A program made the translations under genes and the position numbers. Of a DNA stretch of 64,000 nt, positions 11,132-33,732 are shown piece after piece. How positions within the stretch are numbered: the stretch's first letter is position 1; every line of letters starts with the position of its first letter. This DNA comes from Escherichia coli (GTDB lineage Bacteria > Pseudomonadota > Gammaproteobacteria > Enterobacterales > Enterobacteriaceae). The notes beneath the pieces are model-generated. The model was given only the letters and a program-made list of their open reading frames with translations. It did no database searches and was not told the DNA's origin. Location: the NCBI RefSeq assembly GCF_003334385.1, contig NZ_QOWN01000024.1; one strand, 5' to 3'.

Positions 11132-11319
11132 CGGATTGCCGCCGTGGGCCTTCCCGTTCTGCTGATAACCCTTCCGGTTATATGTTATCTGGTGTGGTTA
11201 TTCGTTAAACTACAGCGGTTGTCGCGGCGACAAAAGTGGCTGCGCAACCGGCTGATGACCCGAAACGGGCATCCGCCGGTACGCCGTAGCCGCCAGAGAC
11301 GCCATCGGAAGGAGTGAGC

Positions 11320-12693
11320 ATGTCTGTACAGCAAATCGACTGGGATCTGGCCCTGATCCAGAAATATAACTATTCCGGGCCACGATACACCTCGTACCCG
11401 ACCGCGCTGGAGTTTTCAGAAGACTTCGGCGAACAGGCGTTTTTACAAGCCGTGGCGCGCTATCCTGAGCGTCCATTATCTCTCTACGTACATATCCCGT
11501 TCTGCCATAAGCTTTGTTACTTCTGCGGTTGCAATAAGATTGTTACTCGCCAGCAGCACAAGGCCGATCAGTATCTGGACGCGCTGGAGCAAGAAATCGT
11601 CCATCGTGCACCGCTGTTCGCCGGGCGTCACGTCAGCCAATTGCACTGGGGCGGCGGAACGCCGACGTATCTGAATAAAGCGCAAATCAGCCGCCTGATG
11701 AAGCTGCTGCGCGAAAACTTCCAGTTCAATGCCGATGCGGAGATTTCGATCGAAGTCGATCCGCGGGAAATCGAACTGGATGTACTCGATCATTTACGCG
11801 CCGAAGGCTTTAATCGCCTGAGCATGGGCGTGCAGGACTTCAACAAAGAAGTGCAACGTCTGGTTAACCGCGAGCAGGATGAAGAGTTCATCTTTGCACT
11901 GCTTAACCATGCGCGTGAGATTGGTTTTACCTCCACCAACATCGACCTGATTTACGGCCTGCCGAAACAGACGCCGGAGAGTTTCGCCTTTACCCTGAAA
12001 CGTGTGGCGGAGCTGAACCCCGATCGTCTGAGTGTCTTTAACTACGCGCATCTGCCGACCATTTTTGCTGCTCAGCGCAAAATCAAAGATGCTGACCTGC
12101 CGAGTCCGCAGCAAAAACTCGATATCCTGCAGGAAACCATCGCCTTCCTGACGCAATCGGGCTATCAGTTTATCGGTATGGATCACTTTGCCCGTCCGGA
12201 TGACGAGCTGGCGGTGGCCCAGCGTGAAGGCGTGCTGCATCGTAACTTCCAGGGCTACACCACTCAGGGCGATACCGATCTGCTGGGGATGGGCGTTTCC
12301 GCCATCAGCATGATTGGCGACTGCTACGCGCAGAACCAGAAAGAGTTGAAGCAGTACTATCAGCAAGTGGATGAACAAGGCAATGCGCTGTGGCGTGGTA
12401 TTGCGCTAACGCGTGATGACTGTATTCGCCGCGATGTGATTAAGTCGCTCATCTGCAACTTCCGTCTGGATTACGCCCCTATTGAGAAACAGTGGGATTT
12501 GCACTTCGCTGATTACTTTGCGGAAGATCTCAAGCTGCTCGCCCCGTTAGCAAAAGATGGGCTGGTGGATGTGGATGAGAAGGGAATACAGGTGACGGCG
12601 AAAGGTCGCTTGCTGATCCGCAACATTTGCATGTGCTTTGATACCTATCTGCGCCAGAAAGCGCGGATGCAGCAGTTCTCTCGGGTGATTTAA
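11320..12693 (+). CDS. hemN: oxygen-independent coproporphyrinogen III oxidase HemN (radical SAM)
   Basis: 457 aa; radical-SAM cysteine motif CHKLCYFCGC. Confidence 0.95.
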   Translation: MSVQQIDWDLALIQKYNYSGPRYTSYPTALEFSEDFGEQAFLQAVARYPERPLSLYVHIPFCHKLCYFCGCNKIVTRQQHKADQYLDALEQEIVHRAPLFAGRHVSQLHWGGGTPTYLNKAQISRLMKLLRENFQFNADAEISIEVDPREIELDVLDHLRAEGFNRLSMGVQDFNKEVQRLVNREQDEEFIFALLNHAREIGFTSTNIDLIYGLPKQTPESFAFTLKRVAELNPDRLSVFNYAHLPTIFAAQRKIKDADLPSPQQKLDILQETIAFLTQSGYQFIGMDHFARPDDELAVAQREGVLHRNFQGYTTQGDTDLLGMGVSAISMIGDCYAQNQKELKQYYQQVDEQGNALWRGIALTRDDCIRRDVIKSLICNFRLDYAPIEKQWDLHFADYFAEDLKLLAPLAKDGLVDVDEKGIQVTAKGRLLIRNICMCFDTYLRQKARMQQFSRVI

Positions 12694-22877: not shown

Positions 22878-23570
22878 TCAGAAGAAATACTTCGTCCCGA
22901 TACGAATCTGGTTTTGCTCGCGGTGGTACGGTTCGACATTACGATCTAACCAGCGTAATTCGAAATAAGGCAGCCAGTGTTCATTAATGCGATAACGGAA
23001 GGTGTTAGTGATTTCCCAGTGATGATCTTTTCCATTGCTGCTATTAAAGTCATTTACGCGTATAAAATAATGTGGCTCAAATGTATAGGAGAACTTATCG
23101 GTGATTTTAAAATTCCAGTAGGTACCAATTTCATAGGTGTCATTATTATCCAGTTCCCCGCTCAAATCTGTTGAACTATAGTTATTATGGTTATAGCGAT
23201 TTCGTACTGTCAGATTAAACCATGGTACAAATTTATAGTTGACGTCCAGATACACTGCACCACCCGAACCGATACTCTTATCATTAATTAAGCCACCGGG
23301 CTGGATGGTTAATTTATCGGTTGGTTTAAATAACGGATACCAACCTTCGATTTCGTTATATCCATGTTTTAGTTCATCTTCTCGCTGAAAGGTGTAGGTA
23401 TTGGTTAACATAATACCCGCGCCCATATCGAAGTTATAACCCACACGTAGCATAACCTCGCCCTGATCGGAGGCGAGATTATATGCCTCCCTGTTTTCGA
23501 CGTATGCGCCAGCGAATACTGAGGCAGAGGTCAGAGAAGATAATAAAATTATTGCATTAATATTTTTCAT
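22878..23570 (-). CDS. ompL: outer membrane porin OmpL
   Basis: 230 aa from Met MKNINAIILLSSLTSASVFA (signal peptide); beta-barrel C-terminal ...RIGTKYFF. Confidence 0.85.
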   Translation of the reverse strand: MKNINAIILLSSLTSASVFAGAYVENREAYNLASDQGEVMLRVGYNFDMGAGIMLTNTYTFQREDELKHGYNEIEGWYPLFKPTDKLTIQPGGLINDKSIGSGGAVYLDVNYKFVPWFNLTVRNRYNHNNYSSTDLSGELDNNDTYEIGTYWNFKITDKFSYTFEPHYFIRVNDFNSSNGKDHHWEITNTFRYRINEHWLPYFELRWLDRNVEPYHREQNQIRIGTKYFF

Positions 23571-23636
23571 AATAAGTCCATTTTTAAACGTAGGGAGGCC
23601 GCCACCCACCAGGATGGAAATAGCGGCTATTGACAT

Positions 23637-25040
23637 TTATAACGTTACGGAAGCCGTTTTTTCTTCTGTCTCAATTTCTTTATTTTTGCGTTGGTTGATT
23701 TCCTCAATAATCAACGCAAACCGTTTTTCATTGAGTGTGTAAAAGAATCCCATCGTCAATGCAGCAATAATTGCCAGTGCACAAGGCCAGATAAAAATGA
23801 GCTGACGCAAACCCTGTAATGTCGCATCACTTTGCGCGATGTTGGGAACATAACCGATTTGCGTCAGCATAATGCCTGGCAAGAAGCCAGCAAGTGCGGC
23901 AGAAATTTTACGAAAGAAGGTATAACCGGTATAAACAGAACCTTCGGCACGAATACCGGTTTTCCATTCACCGTAATCTACGGTATCTGGTACCAGCGCC
24001 CAGTTCAGGCTGTTTACAAAGGCCGTGCCAAAAAAGGCGACACAAGAGAACATGACGAAAGTGAAAGAGTTACTTCCCCAGAAATAATTCAGGATATCAC
24101 CAACCGCCCATAGCACCATGCCAGCTAAATAAACCTGTTTTTTACCAAAACATTTTACAGTTAATGGCACCAGTAATACGCCGACGAGGATGCATCCCAT
24201 ACTGAAGAATCCCATCCACGACAATAAATTAATATCATTCAGCACATACTGGGTGTAATAGACCTGAATCGCCAGTTTGATATTAAATGCCGCCAGGGTA
24301 CACAAGTTAGCAATGCATAAAACCAGCAATGGCGGATTCCGAAATATCGCGCAAAAAGATTTGAGAATACTGGCTTTATGTCCGGTTGGTGCTGTGTCCA
24401 CATAATGCTCTTTGACGCCTCTGTAGCACAGCATCATAAAAATAAAGCCGCCAATGGAGAACATAAGTGCCGCACAGGCATAACCGACGGTTGAGTCAGA
24501 AAAAAGCGACTGCAACGGAATAAACGCCACGGTACAAATCAATAGCCCTATGGTTGCACCACCCTGGCGGTAAGCCGCGAGCTGCGCGCGCTCATTCGGG
24601 TTTTTGGTAATTGCCGGGATCATCGCGCCATACGAGCAGTTCATCAGACTGTATGAAAGCCCAAACATCATAAACAGCGCCGTGGCAATCGTCGTTTTAA
24701 CCGGCAAACTAAAAGTGGTGGCGATAAACTGGAGCGTTGCAATTAACGCCGCCGGAACCGCTGCATATAAAATAAAGGGACGAAATTTGCCTTTAGGCCC
24801 AATATTTTTCCGCGAGTCGAGTAAAAATCCGGTGAGCATATCGGTAAACGCGGTAAAAAACTTCGCCACCAGAAAGATAATCCCGCCATAGTAAGCTGGC
24901 ATCCCTAATTCATCGGTATAAAATTTGAGGAGATACAGAGTACCGATGCTAAGCATTAAATTCGAACCAACGTCGCCCATACCATAGGCGATTTTTTCCC
25001 ACAGATTCAGTTTTAATGTCAGTGGATTATGGTCAGACAT
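23637..25040 (-). CDS. yihO: GPH-family sugar:cation symporter YihO (sulfoquinovose importer)
   Basis: 467 aa polytopic membrane protein; paralogous to the adjacent yihP. Confidence 0.88.
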   Translation of the reverse strand: MSDHNPLTLKLNLWEKIAYGMGDVGSNLMLSIGTLYLLKFYTDELGMPAYYGGIIFLVAKFFTAFTDMLTGFLLDSRKNIGPKGKFRPFILYAAVPAALIATLQFIATTFSLPVKTTIATALFMMFGLSYSLMNCSYGAMIPAITKNPNERAQLAAYRQGGATIGLLICTVAFIPLQSLFSDSTVGYACAALMFSIGGFIFMMLCYRGVKEHYVDTAPTGHKASILKSFCAIFRNPPLLVLCIANLCTLAAFNIKLAIQVYYTQYVLNDINLLSWMGFFSMGCILVGVLLVPLTVKCFGKKQVYLAGMVLWAVGDILNYFWGSNSFTFVMFSCVAFFGTAFVNSLNWALVPDTVDYGEWKTGIRAEGSVYTGYTFFRKISAALAGFLPGIMLTQIGYVPNIAQSDATLQGLRQLIFIWPCALAIIAALTMGFFYTLNEKRFALIIEEINQRKNKEIETEEKTASVTL

Positions 25041-25079
25041 AATCACTCCTTATAACGCCCCGCAGGGCGTCGTTTATTA

Positions 25080-26465
25080 TTACGCCGTGCGTTTACGGGC
25101 TTCTATTTCTTCAACAATGCGGACATACATCTTCTCGTTCAGGCTGTAGAAGCAGCCCATCGCTACAATGGTGACTACCGCCAGTGCGCTTGGGTAGATG
25201 AAGATCAGCTGGCGCAACCCTTCAATGGTGTGGTCAGCCTGTGCGACGTTCGGCACATAGCCAATTTGCGTCAGCATCCAGCCGGGGAAGAAACCTGCCA
25301 GCGCCTGAGAAACTTTGCGAAAGAAGGTGAAGCCGGTGTAGACCGTCCCTTCAGAACGGACACCGGTGCGCCACTCGCCGTACTCGACGGTGTCAGAAAC
25401 CAGCGCCCAGTTCAGGCTGTTAACAAACGCCGAACCAAAGAACGCCAGGCAGGAGAAAGCCACAAAGTTGACCGAGCCGCCGCCGAAGAAATAGTTGAGC
25501 AGATCGCCCAGCACCCAGATCAGCAGACCGCCAATATAGACCTTCTTCTTACCAAAACGCCTGACTGCACCAGGCATCAGGAACACGCCGATGAAAATAC
25601 AGCCCATGCTGAAAAATCCCATATATGACAACAGGATGGGATCGTTAAGCACGTACTGGGTGTAATAGACCTGAATGGCGAGCTTGACGTTAAACGCCCC
25701 TAAGGTACAGAGGTTGGCAATGCACAAAATGAACAGTGGGCGGTTACCGGCAATTGCGCGGAAAGATTGCAACAGGCCTGGCTTTTGCGCCGGATTGGTA
25801 GGTTGGGTTTCGACATAACGCTCTTTCACGCCCGAATAGCAGATCCACATAAACAGCAGGCCAAACAGTGAAAACAGCGTGGCGGCGAAGATATAGCCAA
25901 GTTGCTGATTACCCTCGATAAGATTCATAACCGGCACGAATCCCACCGTGCACAGCAGCAGGCCCAGCGTAGCGCTGCCCTGACGCCATGCTGCCAGCGA
26001 GGCGCGTTCGTTGGGGTTTTTGGTAATGGCGGGAACCATTGCGCCGTAGGAGCAGTTCATCATGCTGAAAAACAGTCCGTAAAGCATAAACAGAATAGTG
26101 GCCATCACCGTTTTACCGGTGACATCGAACGGTGTGCCGATAAAGTTAGCGATTGCCAATAAGGTAACCGGGAATGACGCATACAGAATAAAAGGACGGA
26201 ATTTACCTTTTGGACCGATCTTGCGTCGGGAATCCAACATGATGCCGGTTCCCATATCGGTAAAGGCGGTAAAGAATTTCGAGATCAAAAAGATAATGCC
26301 GCCATAGGTGCCAGGCAGCCCCAGAACGTCGGTATAAAACTTCAAAAGATAAAGCGTACCAATATCCAGCAGGATGTTAGAGGCCAGATCGCCGATACCG
26401 TAAGAGAGTTTCTCTTTAAAGGGCAGGCGCAAAGTTGCCGGATCTTCCGTTGTGATGTGACTCAT
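25080..26465 (-). CDS. yihP: GPH-family transporter YihP
   Basis: 461 aa from Met MSHITTED; clearly similar to YihO along its length (e.g. shared LYLLKFYTD, LCIANLCTL motifs). Confidence 0.88.
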   Translation of the reverse strand: MSHITTEDPATLRLPFKEKLSYGIGDLASNILLDIGTLYLLKFYTDVLGLPGTYGGIIFLISKFFTAFTDMGTGIMLDSRRKIGPKGKFRPFILYASFPVTLLAIANFIGTPFDVTGKTVMATILFMLYGLFFSMMNCSYGAMVPAITKNPNERASLAAWRQGSATLGLLLCTVGFVPVMNLIEGNQQLGYIFAATLFSLFGLLFMWICYSGVKERYVETQPTNPAQKPGLLQSFRAIAGNRPLFILCIANLCTLGAFNVKLAIQVYYTQYVLNDPILLSYMGFFSMGCIFIGVFLMPGAVRRFGKKKVYIGGLLIWVLGDLLNYFFGGGSVNFVAFSCLAFFGSAFVNSLNWALVSDTVEYGEWRTGVRSEGTVYTGFTFFRKVSQALAGFFPGWMLTQIGYVPNVAQADHTIEGLRQLIFIYPSALAVVTIVAMGCFYSLNEKMYVRIVEEIEARKRTA

Positions 26466-26510
26466 CGTTATTCTCCATTTGCCCGTGAGTTTCCCCACGG
26501 GCGGGCATGA

Positions 26511-28547
26511 TTAGATGTTTTTTAACGAGGCGAACAGTGCAGCCCATTCGCTGTCGGCGCGATAAAAGACCGGCGGCTTGCCGATGGGCGCTTCAACAGT
26601 TATTTCTCCACCGTGGAAGGTTTCTCCGGTCCAGGCGTGGACCCAGTTATCCTCTGGCAGATAGAGCGTCCAGTCGCTGCGACCTTCTTCGTGTACCGGA
26701 GCAACCAGAATGTCGCGACCTAACAGGTACTGATATTTCAGGGAATAGGTCTGCGCGTCGTCTTCGTAATGCAGGAACAGCGGGCGCATAACCGGCAGGC
26801 CGGACTTCGCATTCAGCGCGACGGCCTCTTTCAGGTAAGGTTTCAGGGTGGTGAAGACGGTGGTCATACGGGCGAAATGGGCGATGGTTTCCGCGTCGCC
26901 GTCAAACTGCCAGTTGTCGCCAGGACGGTTACCTTCGTGGGTGCGCATCATCGGCGTGAAGGCGCTGAAATCGCACCAGCGCAGCAGCAGCTCTTTGCTG
27001 CGCTTCATCTCAAACAGGGTGGTATAACCGCCAATGTCGCTGTGATGCAGGCCATGTCCGGTCATTGCCAGAGATAGCGCCGCCGGGACAACCGACGCCA
27101 GGCCATCGTCCAGACTCCAGTCCACGTTCTGGTCACCCGCCCACATCATGGTGGAGTATTTCTGGCTACCGGTAGAACCGGCGCGCATAAAGAAGAGGAT
27201 CTCGCCGAGCTTGCCCGTTTCTTCAAGGGCTTCGTAGTTACATTTCGCCCACAGCGCGGGCCAGGCGTTATGCATAATTTCCGCGCTGATGCCGTTATGC
27301 AGGTACGTGTCGGTGGGCAGATACTCGCCGAAGTCAGCCATCCAGCCGCCGCAGCCGAGTTCAATCATGTTCTTTTTGATAACTTCCTTGAACCAGGCGT
27401 AGGCTTCCGGATTGGTGAGATCGACAACGCCGCCGTAGAACTCGCCAAACTCCACCAGATAGTCGCCACCGGCGACATCTTTTGCCAGATAACCGCGCTT
27501 TGCCGCCTCTTCGCAGAGATCTTTATCACTGGCAACATACGGGTTGATATAGGCAAGGAACTGCACGCCCTCTTTGTTCCACTGCTTGATACGCGAATCC
27601 AGTTGCGGGTAGTTTTCGCTGTTCCACTTCCAGTTCCACATCACGCGTTTGCCAAAAGAGGTCATACGAATACCGGACCAGTCCTGCGCCCAGATGCCGT
27701 TGACCTTCACGCCCGCGTTACGCATGGTGTCCAGTTTCTTCTGGCACACTTCCGTCCCGCCCTGAATGCCGAGCGTTACTCCGTCATAAATCCAGTCGGG
27801 CAGTTCTGGCTGGCGTCCCAGCAGGGCGGTTAATTTTTCCAGCAGGGAGATGTATGTGTCAGCACATTCAAAACGCAGCGTTGCTTTGTCTTCCCACAGC
27901 GCCAGTTCATGGTATTCCGGGGCACTAAAGTCGAAGTTCATATAGCAACTGTTATCAACATGGCAGTAATACTTCTGCGTGCTGACAAACGTAGGCTGTG
28001 GGAAGAAAGTCCAGTAATAGTCGCCGCCCGCATTTTCTTTGCAGTCGGCCTGCCAGGTGACATAGGTTTGTTTATTGCGACCAACGCCTTGTTCACTGGT
28101 CCATAGCGGGAACGGTTTGCCACGCAGATCGAAGTAGGAAAACTGTTCGCCGCAGCCGTAGATATGGTCCTCTGGTTGAGCGGCAAGGCGCAGCCAGATA
28201 CGGTTGTGGTTAAGGTTGTCGTTTTGTAGTTCCAGCAATAAACGGCCCTGATCGTCGGCAGAGATATTCAGCGTGGCGCTAATGTCAGAACCACGGCTGA
28301 AATGGATTAACCAACCATCCGGCGACTGGCTGACGATGGCGTCGGTAAGCGCAATTTTCTCCTGTAGTTTATCTTTAATGCTGAAATTGCCGCGGAACAT
28401 ATCGATATCCGCAATACCTGAACCAATCCATAAACAAGGATTATCTTTGCTATGGGTTAAAATAAGACGCTGTTGAAAATGTAGGGTAAAACTGTCGTTA
28501 TTCTGATGAAACTGAAAATCTGGTAATTGTGGGCGTGGCGTATCCAT
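26511..28547 (-). CDS. yihQ: sulfoquinovosidase YihQ (glycoside hydrolase family 31)
   Basis: 678 aa; GH31 catalytic region (WMADFGEYLP). Confidence 0.92.
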   Translation of the reverse strand: MDTPRPQLPDFQFHQNNDSFTLHFQQRLILTHSKDNPCLWIGSGIADIDMFRGNFSIKDKLQEKIALTDAIVSQSPDGWLIHFSRGSDISATLNISADDQGRLLLELQNDNLNHNRIWLRLAAQPEDHIYGCGEQFSYFDLRGKPFPLWTSEQGVGRNKQTYVTWQADCKENAGGDYYWTFFPQPTFVSTQKYYCHVDNSCYMNFDFSAPEYHELALWEDKATLRFECADTYISLLEKLTALLGRQPELPDWIYDGVTLGIQGGTEVCQKKLDTMRNAGVKVNGIWAQDWSGIRMTSFGKRVMWNWKWNSENYPQLDSRIKQWNKEGVQFLAYINPYVASDKDLCEEAAKRGYLAKDVAGGDYLVEFGEFYGGVVDLTNPEAYAWFKEVIKKNMIELGCGGWMADFGEYLPTDTYLHNGISAEIMHNAWPALWAKCNYEALEETGKLGEILFFMRAGSTGSQKYSTMMWAGDQNVDWSLDDGLASVVPAALSLAMTGHGLHHSDIGGYTTLFEMKRSKELLLRWCDFSAFTPMMRTHEGNRPGDNWQFDGDAETIAHFARMTTVFTTLKPYLKEAVALNAKSGLPVMRPLFLHYEDDAQTYSLKYQYLLGRDILVAPVHEEGRSDWTLYLPEDNWVHAWTGETFHGGEITVEAPIGKPPVFYRADSEWAALFASLKNI

Positions 28548-28655
28548 AAATAATCTCCATAGAGTATAAAGCTAATATTTCATGCCATCCTGTTGTTACA
28601 GGTTTCATTAATTAAAGAATGTGGTGCTGGTATAAATTAAAACCCGCATAAGTGA

Positions 28656-29531
28656 TTATTTACTTTCTTCAGCCCGGCGGATTGCCGCCACTTTTTTACC
28701 AAATGCCAGTTGCAGTATAACTAACAAGGTAAAAGGAGGCAGAAGCGCGGCAGCAGCGGGAATTCCCAGCGCGCCTTTTATCAACATAGAACCGGAGGCA
28801 ATCAGCAACAAAAAGACCATCACACGGAACACTTTGACTGAAATGCGTTTATGCACATATTGTCCAACCAGTGAACCGAGGATCATGGTGGGAATACAAA
28901 ACAGCACCAGTTTAAAGATAGAAACAGTCAAAATTCCGCTGGTCGCCAGCCCGCCGATCACCGCGATGTTGTTTGCGGTGAAGAAAGCGTTCAGAGTGCC
29001 ACGAAATGCCGCCGGGCCTAAGTTACGCAGCATACCGTAGATAACCATCGGCGGTCCGTTGGTTGAAAACGCTGCCCCTAACGCTCCTGCCACAGCGCCG
29101 ATAGGTGCGGCGATCCAGTTGCGGTCATAAATCGGCAGGCGTGGAATAAACATACTGTAAAAGGAGTACAGGATAAGGAATCCGCCTAAGCCCACTTTCA
29201 TAAAATGGTCGGGTAAATATGACAGCGCATATAAACCGACGGGTATTCCCAGAAACGAGAAAATAATCAGTACCATTGCCGATCGCCAATCCGTTTCTTT
29301 ACGTGACAGCCAGGTGGCGTACAAGGCGGTCGCGGTGCCGACAATCACCGAGAGCGGAGTTGCCATTTTTACGGGGAGCATTAACGTGACGAGCGGCATG
29401 GTGGTTAAACCACCGCCAAATCCCGCGCATATCCCCACAAAGGTATAAAGAAACATTAACGCGATAACGATACATACCACGTTTGTTTCCAGCATGACCC
29501 CATCCGGTGAAAATAACGTAAAAAAGTCCAT
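28656..29531 (-). CDS. TauE/SafE-family (DUF81) inner membrane protein, putative sulfonate/anion exporter
   Basis: 291 aa ORF with about 8 hydrophobic helices and the family-typical glycine motif GFGGGL near the N-terminus and a second G-rich helix in the C-terminal half; RBS aggaaat 7 nt upstream; same strand and tight spacing with yihR (60 bp) and yihQ (108 bp). Not a gene I recognise at this position in K-12. Confidence 0.7.
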   Translation of the reverse strand: MDFFTLFSPDGVMLETNVVCIVIALMFLYTFVGICAGFGGGLTTMPLVTLMLPVKMATPLSVIVGTATALYATWLSRKETDWRSAMVLIIFSFLGIPVGLYALSYLPDHFMKVGLGGFLILYSFYSMFIPRLPIYDRNWIAAPIGAVAGALGAAFSTNGPPMVIYGMLRNLGPAAFRGTLNAFFTANNIAVIGGLATSGILTVSIFKLVLFCIPTMILGSLVGQYVHKRISVKVFRVMVFLLLIASGSMLIKGALGIPAAAALLPPFTLLVILQLAFGKKVAAIRRAEESK

Positions 29532-29591
29532 GATATTTCCTGTTGTGTAAATACAACCCTAAACAATGATCTCGTTCTTTTCTTAATAAAA

Positions 29592-30494
29592 TTAATTGTG
29601 CTGCCCGTAAATATTAAAAAACAGGCGGTGCGTTTTCCCTGGTTCCAGTAATAATAAGTCGAGACCTGAATTAAAGGCGTTAGGTGGGCAACTCATAGGT
29701 TCAACTGCCAGTCCCTGACGCTGTAATTTTTCGCCGCTATAAATCTGCACCCAGGGTTGATCGGAACAAAGGCTTACCGAAAGCGCCTGTTGTGGATGGG
29801 TAATGGTTATTTCCCACAGATCATTAGCGGTTTTAAAGGTGTGGTCGATTTTTGTCGCGGCTATTTTTTTCGCCTGCGTGAAATTTAAATCCAGCTCATC
29901 AACGTGGTGAAGCGTTGTCGGATTAGCGTGCTCATCGACGGCATAAACCTGGTTTGCCGGAAGCTGGAACAGATATTCATCAACAGATGTTAAGTTGCAG
30001 GTTAAATAAGGATGAATACCCACACCATAGGGTGCGGTCACAGTACCAATATTCTGACTTGCGATCTCAACGGAAAGACCCGTGCGTGCATTGAGCGAAT
30101 AAACAACCTGCGAAGCCAGCATAAACGGATAGCCGTAACTGGGTGGCAGAAAAGCTGTCAGGGTAACGCTGGTGGCGGTTAATTCGCTGATTTGCCAGTC
30201 ACGCCAGGCGAGCAGCCCATGAATAGCGGCTTTTGAACCATGTTCATTAATGGGTAACTGATATTCCTGCCCCTGATAGCGATAACAGCCGTTGGCGATC
30301 CGGTTCGGCCACGGAATAAGGACTTTGCCCAGATGTGCCAGCGGCATCTCTTCGGGTTTATGTGGAATAACTAAATGACAGCCCTGAAAGGTTAATTCAG
30401 CCAGACCTGCACCGACGGTCACAATGGTCGCGTGATAATCCCCCGCGGCAAGTGAAACGGTCTGTCCACTGCAATGCATGTTGGTGATTTGCAT
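29592..30494 (-). CDS. yihR: aldose-1-epimerase-like mutarotase YihR
   Basis: 300 aa ORF; no in-frame upstream start before a stop 21 codons upstream. Confidence 0.85.
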   Translation of the reverse strand: MQITNMHCSGQTVSLAAGDYHATIVTVGAGLAELTFQGCHLVIPHKPEEMPLAHLGKVLIPWPNRIANGCYRYQGQEYQLPINEHGSKAAIHGLLAWRDWQISELTATSVTLTAFLPPSYGYPFMLASQVVYSLNARTGLSVEIASQNIGTVTAPYGVGIHPYLTCNLTSVDEYLFQLPANQVYAVDEHANPTTLHHVDELDLNFTQAKKIAATKIDHTFKTANDLWEITITHPQQALSVSLCSDQPWVQIYSGEKLQRQGLAVEPMSCPPNAFNSGLDLLLLEPGKTHRLFFNIYGQHN

Positions 30495-30562
30495 ACGAGG
30501 TACCTTTATTGAATAACGACATACCCGGCGTGCAGCCTGATATGTCGTTTTTTTTTAGTCAG

Positions 30563-31804
30563 CTATTTCGCGTTAATATCCAGCAGACCCGCCGCAACTG
30601 CCGGAGCCAGGCCTGGCGCTAACGGGATACGCGGGATCACCAGGCAATGCAGCAGGTGATAAATATCCTGTTTACCGTCCCAGACTTTCGTGGTGACTTT
30701 ATTGTCCGCATCCAGCTCCTGCCACCAGGAACCATTTTCATAGTCCATCAGGTACTTAATGCAGTAGTCCCACCATGTCTGATACCAGGTTTCATACTGG
30801 CGATCGCCGGTGACGGTGTAGAGCGCGTAGGCCGTACCCATCGCTTCGACGATAGGCCAACGCACACGTTCGCGGACCACCGGTTTTCCTTCCCAGTCAA
30901 CGGTATAAACAATCCCGTCCGCACCATCGGGTGCCCAGGCATCACGCACGGTGGCGTTAAACAGACCTTTGGCATCTTCTAGCAGCCATGCTGGCGGTTG
31001 TTCGCAACGGGCTTCCAGGGCCGCGTGGATGTGCAGCATTAAACGGCCCCATTCGATCCAGTGGCCTGGTGTACCTCCGAACGCGCGGAAGCGGTGCGCC
31101 GGGTTATCTTTGTTGTAATCCGGCAGCGGATTCCACTGGGTATCGAAGTGTTCGTTAACGCGATAATGATTATTTCTTGCGACGTCGTGGATAATCACGG
31201 AAGCCACGCGAATCGCGCGATCCAGCCATTTTTTGTCATGCGTTACGTCATAAACAATTAAGAAAGCTTCCACTGCGTGCATATTGGCATTGCCGCCGCG
31301 GTACTCTTCGGTTTTGCTGAAGGCTTCGTCCCAGGACTCCAGGCACATCTGCTCTTCTTCGCTCCAGAAGTATTTCTCGATAATTTCAATGGTGTAATCG
31401 AGCAGCTTGCGCGCTTCCGGATGACCGGTAGTGACGGCGCTGGCAGCACCCAGCAGAGCAAAGAAATGTTGATAGCCCTGTTTGGAGGCATCCACCACGC
31501 CCTCGTCATTCACACAGGCATACCAGCCGCCATATTTTTTATCGCGCAGTGCGCCGTTCATGGCTTTAATACCGTGATCAACCAACGAGTAAGCGCCAGG
31601 TCGACCCATCGCCGCAGCAACGGAATAAACGTGCAACATCCGAGCTGTGATCCACAGATGGGTGCCCATCTCTTCTTTGATTTGCCCTTTATTGCCTAAC
31701 CAGCCAAATCCAGTCGGTACTACGGAATTTTTACCAAAATCAAAGATGCGATCGGTTTCCTGTTCCAGCCAACGGTTGTGACTTAAAGTGTTAAACCATT
31801 TCAT
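30563..31804 (-). CDS. yihS: sulfoquinovose isomerase YihS
   Basis: 413 aa. Confidence 0.9.
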
Positions 31805-31819
31805 TTTTGTATCCCCATC

Positions 31820-32698
31820 TTAACGGCGTTTAGCCATCATTTCGTCGACGATATCGCCCAGTTGTTGTAATTTCGGTGCACAAACGTCACGCAGCATCAG
31901 CTCGTTGTCTGGTAAACCGACGACCGATGCCCAGACGGCACGACCAGCCAGGAAGCCCGATGCACCCGCTGTCATTGCCACGCGTACGGCACGCGGGAAC
32001 AGTTTTTCGTCGACACCGGAAGAGAGGATCACCCACGGCATATTGATATGGTCATTCAGACGTTGTGAAGCACTGAGAAGCTCTTGTTGCGGACCTTTAC
32101 CGTAAAGCGGCATTTCAACTTTGTAGAGGTCAGCGCCACTGTCGCCCAGCTCTTTGGCAGCATCGATGATCGCTTGTTCGCGATCGAATTTATCGCCACG
32201 ACGTGGTGGGCGGACGACTGGCTCAATAATGCTTACCAGGCCGTGTGAGTGGCACAGTTCGTTAAACTCTTTCACCATATCCAGGCGTTGCTGCGCATCT
32301 TCATCACTACGCCACAGCACCAGCAGTTTTAAGGCTTTGCCACCGTCTTGTTTGATCTGTAGCGGATTGATTTTGCGGTCAATGACCACGCTATCTACCG
32401 GAATACCGTTGCCAGGAATGAACTCATCGGCGGCGACAATCATGGCGCAACTTTTGGCAATCGCGTTTTGCTCAACCACCTGGCGGTAACAGAATTGTTG
32501 ATCTACCAGAATCGCCGAGGCATAAGGCGAGAGGGTCTTCGCCGCGTTAACTTTGAAATCAGTTAAAACGCTATCGGCTACCGGAGCGGGTGCCCCAGCC
32601 GCGGCAAACATCATGCGCATGGCTTCGCGCTGATCGACCGCCAGCATGGCAAAACCGCCCGATGCGCGCGTAATGTCGTTGATGGTGTACTTATTCAT
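31820..32698 (-). CDS. yihT: 6-deoxy-6-sulfofructose-1-phosphate aldolase YihT
   Basis: 292 aa class I aldolase-like protein. Confidence 0.9.
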
Positions 32699-32721
32699 TC
32701 ATTTATTCCTTTATCCAGTCG

Positions 32722-33618
32722 TTACATTTTTACTTTGGCAGTCATCCCGGCACTGACACGGACCTGTTCCAGAATGGCGGACCAGTCCTGGCGACCGCGA
32801 CCCGCTGCGCGCGCCTGGCTATAAACCTCCCGTGAGGCGGCCCCCAGCGGCATTGGCACATGCAGCTGGTTGGCGACATCAAGGGCGATGCCAAGATCCT
32901 TATGGGCAAGATCGATCATGAAGGCGGGAGAAAGATCTCCGCTGAGGACTTTGTTTGGCCAGGAAGTGGTGAAGTGGCCTTTACCGGCGGCGGTACCGCT
33001 CATCACTTTGACGGCAACATCGAAGGGAAGATTCAGGGCTTCGCACAAAACGGCAGCTTCTGCCGAAAGCGCATTGAGCGCGATGCTCATATAGTTGTTG
33101 ATGAGCTTAACGCGGATCCCCATGCCCGGACCGCCAGCGTTAATCAACTCACTGCCCATCGCCATCAGGATCGGCGTGGCACGTTCAACTTGTTCAGCGG
33201 TGCCGCCAGCCAGCAGTAACAGAGTACCGGTAATGGCATTTGCAGAAGTACGGCCTACCGGAACATCCATCATGCTGAAGCCTTTGGCTTGCATATCGGC
33301 AATCAATTTATCGGTTTGCAGCGGATGGATGGTCGACATATCAATGAGCAGCGCATCGGTAGATAAGCTTTCGCAAACGCCGTTTTCACCGAACAACACG
33401 CTGCGCACCAGATCGCCATTCGGCAACATGGTAATGATAAATTCGGCATCTTTAGCGGCCTGCGCCGGGGTGGCGGCGGGAGTCGCGCCTTTGTCTACCA
33501 GATGCCGCACAGCCTCGGCATTCACATCAAAGACGCGAAGTTGGTGCCCTTGCTGCAATAAATTGCTCGCCATTGGCGAACCCATTTGTCCTAAACCGAT
33601 AAACGCGATTGCTGCCAT
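32722..33618 (-). CDS. yihU: 3-sulfolactaldehyde reductase YihU
   Basis: 298 aa; N-terminal Rossmann motif GLGQMG (beta-hydroxyacid dehydrogenase family). Confidence 0.9.
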
Positions 33619-33641
33619 AACCTTCTCCTGAATACAGCGAT

Positions 33642-33732
33642 GTCACTTTTTGTCATTTATGACACGCTTTGATTGTCTGTTTTTGATCGTATTTGTAATT
33701 TATAGTCAAAAAATTGACAGCCGTCACTTTTT
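33642..33732. promoter_or_regulatory. yihU/yihV divergent promoter region with repeated GTCACTTTTT operator-like motifs (candidate CsqR sites)
   Basis: gtcactttttgtcatttatgacac (33642-33668) and gtcacttttt (33723-33732) in a 161 bp divergent intergenic region. Confidence 0.5.

Follow-up and report, generated by a model that had tools for sequence, protein, structure and literature searches.

A TauE/SafE-family permease gene in the sulfoquinovose operon of Escherichia coli, missing from strain K-12, is a candidate 2,3-dihydroxypropane-1-sulfonate exporter gene

The window analysed here is a 64,000-nucleotide stretch of Escherichia coli contig NZ_QOWN01000024.1 (assembly GCF_003334385.1). It contains the gene cluster of the sulfo-EMP (sulfo-Embden-Meyerhof-Parnas) pathway of sulfoquinovose degradation and, between the mutarotase gene yihR and the sulfoquinovosidase gene yihQ, an open reading frame (ORF) for a polytopic membrane protein of the TauE/SafE family, hereafter tauE. 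Sulfoquinovose ranks among nature's most abundant organosulfur compounds; E. coli makes 2,3-dihydroxypropane-1-sulfonate (DHPS) from it, and other gut bacteria turn DHPS into hydrogen sulfide. The initial annotation of this DNA had described an intact ORF of 291 aa on the strand of yihR and yihQ, and both the ORF, which starts with ATG, and its same-strand position within the sulfo-EMP cluster are borne out by the ORF list and the gene annotation. The interval given for it, 28548-29591, is however the whole distance from yihQ to yihR and not the coding sequence (CDS); the spacers of 60 and 108 bp were correct. The tauE gene of the window is the same DNA as the CDS of WP_000345434.1 in NZ_CP025851.1, which PGAP names 'sulfite exporter TauE/SafE family protein'. 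Its orthologue in O157:H7 Sakai is ECs_4801, annotated 'hypothetical protein'.

The AGGAA motif upstream of tauE, already recognized as the gene's own ribosome-binding site, is invariant in an alignment of seven taxa including E. coli, E. whittamii, Salmonella, S. diarizonae, Citrobacter and Superficieibacter. At the other end, the spacer between tauE and yihQ contains the invariant yihQ ribosome-binding site ATGGAGA. With a GC content of 49.4% (54.8% at third codon positions), compared to 50.5% for the window, the gene resembles its neighbours, in agreement with the native composition first attributed to it. Within Escherichia, the ratio of nonsynonymous to synonymous substitution rates (dN/dS) is 0.051 against O157 and 0.014 against E. 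whittamii. Homologues 75-99% identical to TauE are found in Enterobacterales, Vibrio owensii and Aeromonas cavernicola, and one of 64% identity in Craterilacuibacter; the mean column identity of the orthologues across genera is 85%. Because of these low dN/dS values and the orthologues of ~75-99% identity across Enterobacterales, Vibrio and Aeromonas, tauE is a real gene under selection and not a chance ORF.

The family assignment was confirmed by a profile search. The Pfam model PF01925 (TauE) matches residues 23-248 over model positions 2-235 of 237 (i-Evalue 4.7e-35, score 121.8) and was present in 120 of 120 homologues, among the matches listed; no NCBIfam family model matched the protein. 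The glycine motif GFGGGL, noticed at the outset, occupies residues 37-42 and the motif STNGPP residues 156-161. The family-wide motifs GFG, MP, ATP, NGPP and FR are all present. G37 is invariant, and F38, G39, P46, P59, G159 and P160 are kept in at least 90% of 133 family members. An AlphaFold model of low confidence (predicted local distance difference test, pLDDT, 42) contains nine long helices, in agreement with hydropathy, the last at residues 261-290, and two short broken helices at the glycine and proline motifs. The internal 4+4 duplication from which the ~8 transmembrane helices of the family are expected to derive was not detected by pairwise alignment of the two halves (z = -0.3) or by hhalign (E = 0.21, though in register). 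A C-terminal extension made of a hydrophobic helix and the sequence GKKVAAIR occurs in every orthologue but that of Craterilacuibacter. K55 is invariant in an alignment of 20 orthologues and is not kept in distant relatives; R177 is widely conserved across the TauE family. It is speculation that these two residues bind the sulfonate.

In the window, tauE is co-directional with the yih genes on both sides and separated from them by short spacers, neither of which contains a minus-strand terminator-like site (Table 1). This arrangement points to co-transcription of tauE with the yih genes. The packing is tighter in Hafnia, where tauE follows yihQ after 2 bp and yihP follows tauE after 13 bp. An Rfam scan of positions 26000-35600 gave zero RNA-element matches. 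The palindrome CCTGTTGTTACAGG at 28589-28602 precedes the start of yihQ by ~42-55 bp and lies within a few bp of the border of the tauE polymorphism described below. It was considered as a regulatory element and rejected, as it occurs once in the window, no more than expected by chance. It is Escherichia-specific, the K-12 version (locus L003, ~11318-11331) and the O157 version each carrying one change. Salmonella and Citrobacter lack it and have instead a GC-rich hairpin, GCGCTACTT..AGTAGCGC, directly after the tauE stop codon.

Table 1. Coordinates of tauE, its flanking features and the yih genes in the window
Feature	Coordinates	Strand	Remarks
tauE-like CDS	28656..29531	-	ATG start, 291 aa; TauE/SafE (TSUP) permease, candidate DHPS exporter; ORF list and Pfam
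Shine-Dalgarno AGGAA	29537..29541	-	5 nt upstream of tauE ATG; read from sequence
yihR-tauE spacer	29532..29591	-	60 bp, yihR stop to tauE ATG; no minus-strand terminator-like site
tauE-yihQ spacer	28548..28655	-	108 bp, tauE stop to yihQ ATG; no minus-strand terminator found
tauE polymorphism segment	28606..29600	.	995 bp, replaced in K-12 MG1655 by 151 bp of unrelated AT-rich DNA; blastn breakpoints
yihR (sulfoquinovose mutarotase)	29592..30494	-	upstream operon neighbour of tauE; 94.7% nt identical to K-12
yihQ (sulfoquinovosidase)	26511..28547	-	downstream operon neighbour of tauE
ompL, yihO, yihP (porin and two MFS_2/GPH-type permeases)	22878..26498	-	distal end of the co-directional string
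yihS, yihT, yihU (isomerase, aldolase, DHPS-making sulfolactaldehyde reductase)	30563..33618	-	proximal part of the string
yihV (sulfofructose kinase) and csqR (repressor)	33780..35501	+	divergently transcribed

In K-12 MG1655, yihQ and yihR are adjacent with a gap of 198 bp and tauE is missing, as the initial annotation had stated. Homology between the window and K-12 ends at window positions 28605 and 29601, and YihR differs in its last two residues, at the breakpoint. The tauE segment was found in 1,297 of 5,426 complete E. coli genomes and the K-12 filler in 2,642. The yihR gene is present in 4,001 of these genomes and absent from ~1,425; approximately one third of the yihR-positive genomes carry tauE and two thirds are in the K-12 state. 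The genomes devoid of yihR are consistent with the 'short' cassette, yihTUVW, of a survey of yih cassette diversity (PMC12608037). That survey nowhere mentions a tauE gene, and the strains used for its RNA-seq, K-12 and Nissle, both lack tauE. The 1,299 places where the segment occurs are all chromosomal and almost always single-copy, and tauE was annotated as a normal CDS, not as a pseudogene, in 29 of 29 carriers sampled evenly down the ranking. Carriers include O157:H7 strains, with 96.5% nt identity to the tauE segment of the window, and many small-genome strains that match the window almost without difference over 14 kb, such as the enterotoxigenic strain ATCC 43886 and an O25:NM strain.

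The 151-bp filler (L003, 11334-11484) is at least 99% identical in 2,370 genomes. Comparison with tauE, the window and all fetched loci revealed no similarity, and the interpretation of the filler as a deletion scar of tauE was rejected on these grounds. A third allele, a 'hypothetical protein' between yihQ and yihR in strain MLI104K2 (NZ_CP116925.1; L002, 3119-3769), was dismissed as an assembly artefact: ~650 bp of almost pure poly-A take the place of most of tauE in this sole record. The replaced segment lies at the centre of a larger divergent block. Identity between window and K-12 is 91-97% over ~25100-32100, a stretch of ~7 kb that covers yihP, yihQ, yihR and yihS, and 97-99% on both sides of it. 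Strains of E. coli usually differ far less than this; the block points to a pair of old haplotypes that would have been exchanged by recombination. In strain 510016 (NZ_CP025851.1; L001, 2595-4172), whose tauE segment is identical to that of the window, an IS1A element beside yihO replaces the 3′ end of yihM and the whole of yihN and ompL; these three genes are intact in the window.

The initial annotation had left open whether tauE is a presence/absence polymorphism or an insertion. The polymorphism is evident from the counts given above, but several observations speak against an insertion. The order yihR-tauE-yihQ is shared with Salmonella enterica (two subspecies), E. whittamii, Citrobacter sp. 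wls619, Mangrovibacter, Superficieibacter and one enterobacterial metagenome-assembled genome. The window and Salmonella genes are 73.9% identical in nucleotides and 87.0% in amino acids, compared to 70-84% and 70-97%, respectively, for the flanking yih genes. No direct or inverted repeats flanking tauE were found. In the plasmid collection tauE occurs in two records only: NZ_CP134663.1, a 4.9-Mb E. coli record that is evidently a chromosome filed as a plasmid, and NZ_CP051374.1, a 194-kb non-mobilizable Salmonella record. A recent insertion or mobile element was thus rejected, the gene being chromosomal, of native GC content, without flanking repeats, and matching Salmonella in position and divergence. 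From this comparison, tauE is best regarded as a native, ancestral component of the enterobacterial operon yihU-T-S-R-tauE-Q-P-O-ompL. The K-12 state in turn is best regarded as a derived loss or replacement of the gene, because the gene order is common to other genera, the divergence of tauE matches that of its neighbours and flanking repeats are absent.

Orthologue loci were collected more widely, 28 from a scan of 100,044 species genomes in addition to loci of Salmonella, Hafnia, Enterobacter kobei and Cronobacter. The fetched loci were annotated by tblastn with the Yih proteins of the window and the enzymes of the neighbour cluster of E. kobei. At every orthologue locus examined, including 28 of 28 from the scan, tauE lies within a sulfoquinovose-degradation cluster of the sulfo-EMP or the sulfo-Entner-Doudoroff (sulfo-ED) type. 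Three layouts were distinguished. Layout A, yihU-T-S-R-tauE-Q-P-O-ompL, is that of the window. Layout B, yihU-T-S-R-Q-tauE-P-O, is found in Hafnia, Kluyvera, Pantoea, Atlantibacter, Citrobacter freundii, Lelliottia and Cronobacter. Layout C is a sulfo-ED cluster with a LacI regulator, an SSF symporter, an ILVD_EDD dehydratase, an HpcH aldolase, a mutarotase, an SGL lactonase, an NAD_binding_2 reductase and an SDR dehydrogenase, tauE being the last gene; it occurs in E. kobei, Mixta, Leminorella, Edwardsiella, Buttiauxella, C. amalonaticus, Vibrio, Aeromonas and Craterilacuibacter. Its Pfam set (PF00106/PF13561, PF08450, PF00920, PF03328) corresponds to the families listed for the sulfo-ED pathway.

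In a neighbour-joining tree of the proteins, layouts A and B form separate clades with C basal. The tree follows cluster layout, and tauE therefore evolved together with its cluster, having been kept in sulfoglycolysis clusters through at least three rearrangements of their architecture. In a library of 1.84 billion representatives, the orthologue group falls into one full-length 50%-identity cluster only. The next relatives are at most 38% identical, comprise ~240 aa and lack the N- and C-terminal extensions; none of the three that were looked up lies in a sulfoquinovose cluster.

Some of these genomes have more than one cassette. In E. kobei and Enterobacter sp. ENT03 (L008 and L021, 1000-20800), two clusters lie ~1.4 kb apart with nothing but an Hcp/Tlde1 type VI secretion gene pair between them: a DHPS-type sulfo-ED cluster that ends in tauE and a sulfo-EMP cluster devoid of yihR and tauE. 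These side-by-side sulfoquinovose pathways apparently share one mutarotase and one TauE. In Citrobacter amalonaticus (L023, 1000-19500), the sulfo-ED cluster with tauE is found ~5 kb from a short yihT-U-V-csqR cassette, which resembles the 'short' E. coli cassette of PMC12608037.

The gene content of the clusters bears on the function of TauE. The importers vary: two MFS_2 permeases, one MFS_2 permease (Lelliottia and an uncultured Enterobacter) or one SSF symporter. TauE does not vary, and every cluster examined has some other transporter beside it. Common to the tauE-bearing clusters are also sulfoquinovose as the starting compound and sulfolactaldehyde as the intermediate. A YihU or YihU-like NAD_binding_2 reductase is encoded in every one of them; the layout C reductase aligns with YihU along its full length at 29% identity. 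In 35 loci, no ORF combining the two aldehyde-dehydrogenase PROSITE signatures turned up within 10 kb, and no desulfonating enzyme is encoded among the genes identified in these tauE-bearing loci. Thus tauE goes with sulfolactaldehyde (SLA) reductase and not with the signature of SLA dehydrogenase, and in the loci examined its linkage to DHPS-type sulfoglycolysis clusters is strict. A 2026 study of Vibrio splendidus JLJ25 reported a sulfo-ED cluster in which an SLA reductase replaces the dehydrogenase, and experiments showed that this strain converts sulfoquinovose into near-stoichiometric DHPS and zero sulfolactate (PMC13372026). The cluster is described with the same enzyme set as the layout C clusters with tauE; transporters are not discussed in that study.

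Because the importers vary between clusters while TauE is constant, the best reading of the gene context is that the TauE-like protein is probably the DHPS exporter of the operon. We infer its substrate, transport direction and energy coupling as follows. YihO, YihP and OmpL would bring in sulfoquinovose and its glycosides. TauE, a polytopic inner-membrane secondary transporter, would export DHPS, the anionic end product made in the cytoplasm by YihU; the membrane potential could plausibly drive efflux of this anion, judging from the protein family and the charge of DHPS. TauE would thereby serve the step common to all the clusters, DHPS excretion. K-12-type strains, which make up about two thirds of the yihR carriers, would excrete DHPS via YihP or another carrier.

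The initial annotation had proposed an exporter of DHPS or of sulfolactate. DHPS is favoured over sulfolactate because a YihU-type reductase is present in every cluster and the aldehyde-dehydrogenase signature is not; the exporter role itself is a prediction from context. TauE could also export another sulfur anion (sulfolactate, the reactive intermediate sulfolactaldehyde, or sulfite) while DHPS leaves via YihP, to which the literature gives its export. TauE and SafE have indeed been linked to sulfite and sulfoacetate export, and a TauE has been proposed as a sulfolactate exporter in Cupriavidus. However, with neither desulfonation nor aldehyde dehydrogenase detected in or near the 35 clusters, sulfite and sulfolactate are unexpected products, and the Vibrio cluster of the same type yields DHPS without sulfolactate. 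Moreover, the sulfo-ED clusters, that of Aeromonas excepted, have no YihP homologue and yet must export DHPS. We therefore consider export of another anion unlikely. With neither sulfite nor sulfolactate among the expected products, 'sulfite exporter', the name given by PGAP, probably misleads for this protein.

Family membership is no guide to the direction of transport, as TSUP includes proposed uptake systems, and this has to be set against the export assignment. The family is in fact named after a proposed 4-toluenesulfonate uptake permease (PMC8873060). TauE could accordingly supplement YihO and YihP by taking up a sulfonated compound, for example sulfoquinovose, sulfoquinovosyl-glycerol or some other sulfosugar, and in both sulfo-EMP layouts its gene adjoins the sulfoquinovosidase gene. 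On the other hand, one or more sugar-type symporters (MFS_2 or SSF) already accompany tauE in every cluster, most clusters additionally encode a KdgM/OmpL uptake porin, and the sulfo-ED-type clusters hold no other candidate exporter. The gene also tracks the product-forming reductase and not the glycosidase, most tauE-bearing sulfo-ED clusters being without YihQ. An uptake role is thus quite improbable. Structural data are no help to the assignment of TauE as a DHPS exporter: the AlphaFold model, computed from 20 close orthologues, is poor and gives no support for a substrate site, and a search of solved structures with the single sequence and with a 133-sequence profile found no relative.

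Other observations weigh more directly against export of DHPS by TauE. According to the literature, K-12, which lacks tauE, still grows on sulfoquinovose and excretes DHPS stoichiometrically; therefore tauE is not essential for export. Reviews and primary papers assign DHPS export to YihP, though only as 'most likely' (PMC6278857, PMC12890257). With YihQ as an anchor, sulfo-EMP-type clusters without tauE were located in Yersinia intermedia, Serratia fonticola and one strain of the Enterobacter cloacae complex. All four tauE-less examples, K-12 included, keep two MFS_2 permeases, whereas two tauE-bearing sulfo-EMP clusters keep only one. Redundancy of YihP and TauE would explain this pattern no less well than a scheme of two importers plus TauE, and no better. 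The Y. intermedia and S. fonticola clusters (L048 and L049, 2600-14900) comprise YihQ, YihU-type and PfkB-type genes, two MFS_2 permeases and a KdgM porin, and genes of the class II FBP-aldolase and Fucose_iso_C families take the place of YihT and YihS.

Since K-12 performs the pathway without tauE, other genera have tauE-less clusters and two thirds of the yihR-positive E. coli genomes lack the gene, tauE might also be a mere passenger that E. coli is losing, dispensable because YihP or general anion efflux does the same work, and with no measurable present role in sulfoglycolysis. The low dN/dS and the conservation of the protein at 75-99% identity across orders nevertheless denote continuing strong constraint. 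Neither the normal CDS in each of the 29 sampled carriers nor the retention of tauE through successive rearrangements of the clusters agrees with decay, which makes a passenger very unlikely.

TauE of the window can be compared with several known proteins. The founding members of the TauE/SafE family are TauE of Cupriavidus necator (sulfite export) and SafE (sulfoacetate export). The window protein has in common with the family a full-length Pfam match, the GFG(G)G and NGPP motifs, probably the ~8 hydrophobic helices, and the setting in an organosulfonate pathway. It differs from its relatives, the closest of which outside the clade are at most 38% identical, by extensions of ~12 aa at the N-terminus and ~38 aa at the C-terminus, the latter adding the ninth hydrophobic helix and the basic tail GKKVAAIR. 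Its expected substrate is DHPS, unlike the sulfite and sulfoacetate of the founders. YfcA ('putative transporter YfcA'), a TauE-family paralogue in K-12, is similar across the region of the glycine-rich motif and aligns with the family lengthwise. However, its 26% identity to the window protein extends over the N-terminal 117 residues only, and its gene, flanked by mepA and epmC, has an unrelated housekeeping setting; YfcA is not an orthologue.

Closer parallels are found in other sulfoglycolysis pathways, in which TauE-type proteins have been predicted to export sulfolactate, DHPS or isethionate: SftE, SqwE and the TauE of actinobacterial sulfo-EMP clusters (PMC7491151, PMC12890257, PMC8873060). 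SftE (sulfo-transaldolase pathway, Bacillus/Firmicutes), SqwE (sulfo-transketolase pathway) and the Arthrobacter sulfo-EMP TauE belong to the same family as the window protein, occupy the same place in a sulfoquinovose cluster and have the same predicted role, excretion of a C2/C3 sulfonate end product. Compared with them by description, the window protein represents a separate, tight gammaproteobacterial clade that, unlike them, is linked only to reductase-bearing, DHPS-forming clusters.

YihP, in K-12 a 'putative 2,3-dihydroxypropane-1-sulfonate export protein', shares with TauE the operon and the proposed step. It belongs to an unrelated family, PF13347 (MFS_2), the Pfam model of which it shares with the importer YihO. 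The members of MFS_2 are mainly sugar:cation symporters. YihP is missing where tauE stays, in Lelliottia, the uncultured Enterobacter and most sulfo-ED clusters, and its assignment as an exporter is by default, not by experiment. A further step would be to regard the TauE clade, and not YihP, as the dedicated DHPS exporter of gammaproteobacterial sulfo-EMP and DHPS-forming sulfo-ED pathways, YihO and YihP both being importers. We advance this only tentatively, and on balance hold it to be doubtful. If true, one of YihO and YihP would, for example, import sulfoquinovose and the other its glycerol glycoside, and the database label of YihP as DHPS exporter would be wrong. K-12 would then be a degenerate variant leaking DHPS by non-dedicated routes, and the two haplotypes, 3-9% divergent over ~7 kb, would mark a functional polymorphism for the use of dietary sulfoquinovose in the gut.

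TauE-type product exporters are already standard predictions in other sulfoglycolysis clusters, and the kind of protein is thus known. In the full-text literature searched, tauE of E. coli or Salmonella is not mentioned; the founding 2014 Nature paper was outside this search, and its figures may show the gene. Within the same literature, three points appear unreported: that the enterobacterial sulfo-EMP operon ancestrally includes tauE, that the reference strain K-12 lost it, and that the orthologues form a tight clade confined to clusters of the DHPS-forming type. A specialist is unlikely to be surprised by the finding, and its practical consequences are modest; the annotation of YihP is called into question and its role deserves re-testing. 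Export is the one step of the E. coli pathway with only a default assignment, to YihP, and TauE provides a concrete candidate for it, which is specific and easily tested. The 'long' yih cassette of recent surveys has two forms, and the laboratory reference has the reduced one. Salmonella, O157:H7 and roughly one in four complete E. coli genomes carry tauE, and such carriers offer a natural comparison with non-carriers such as K-12.

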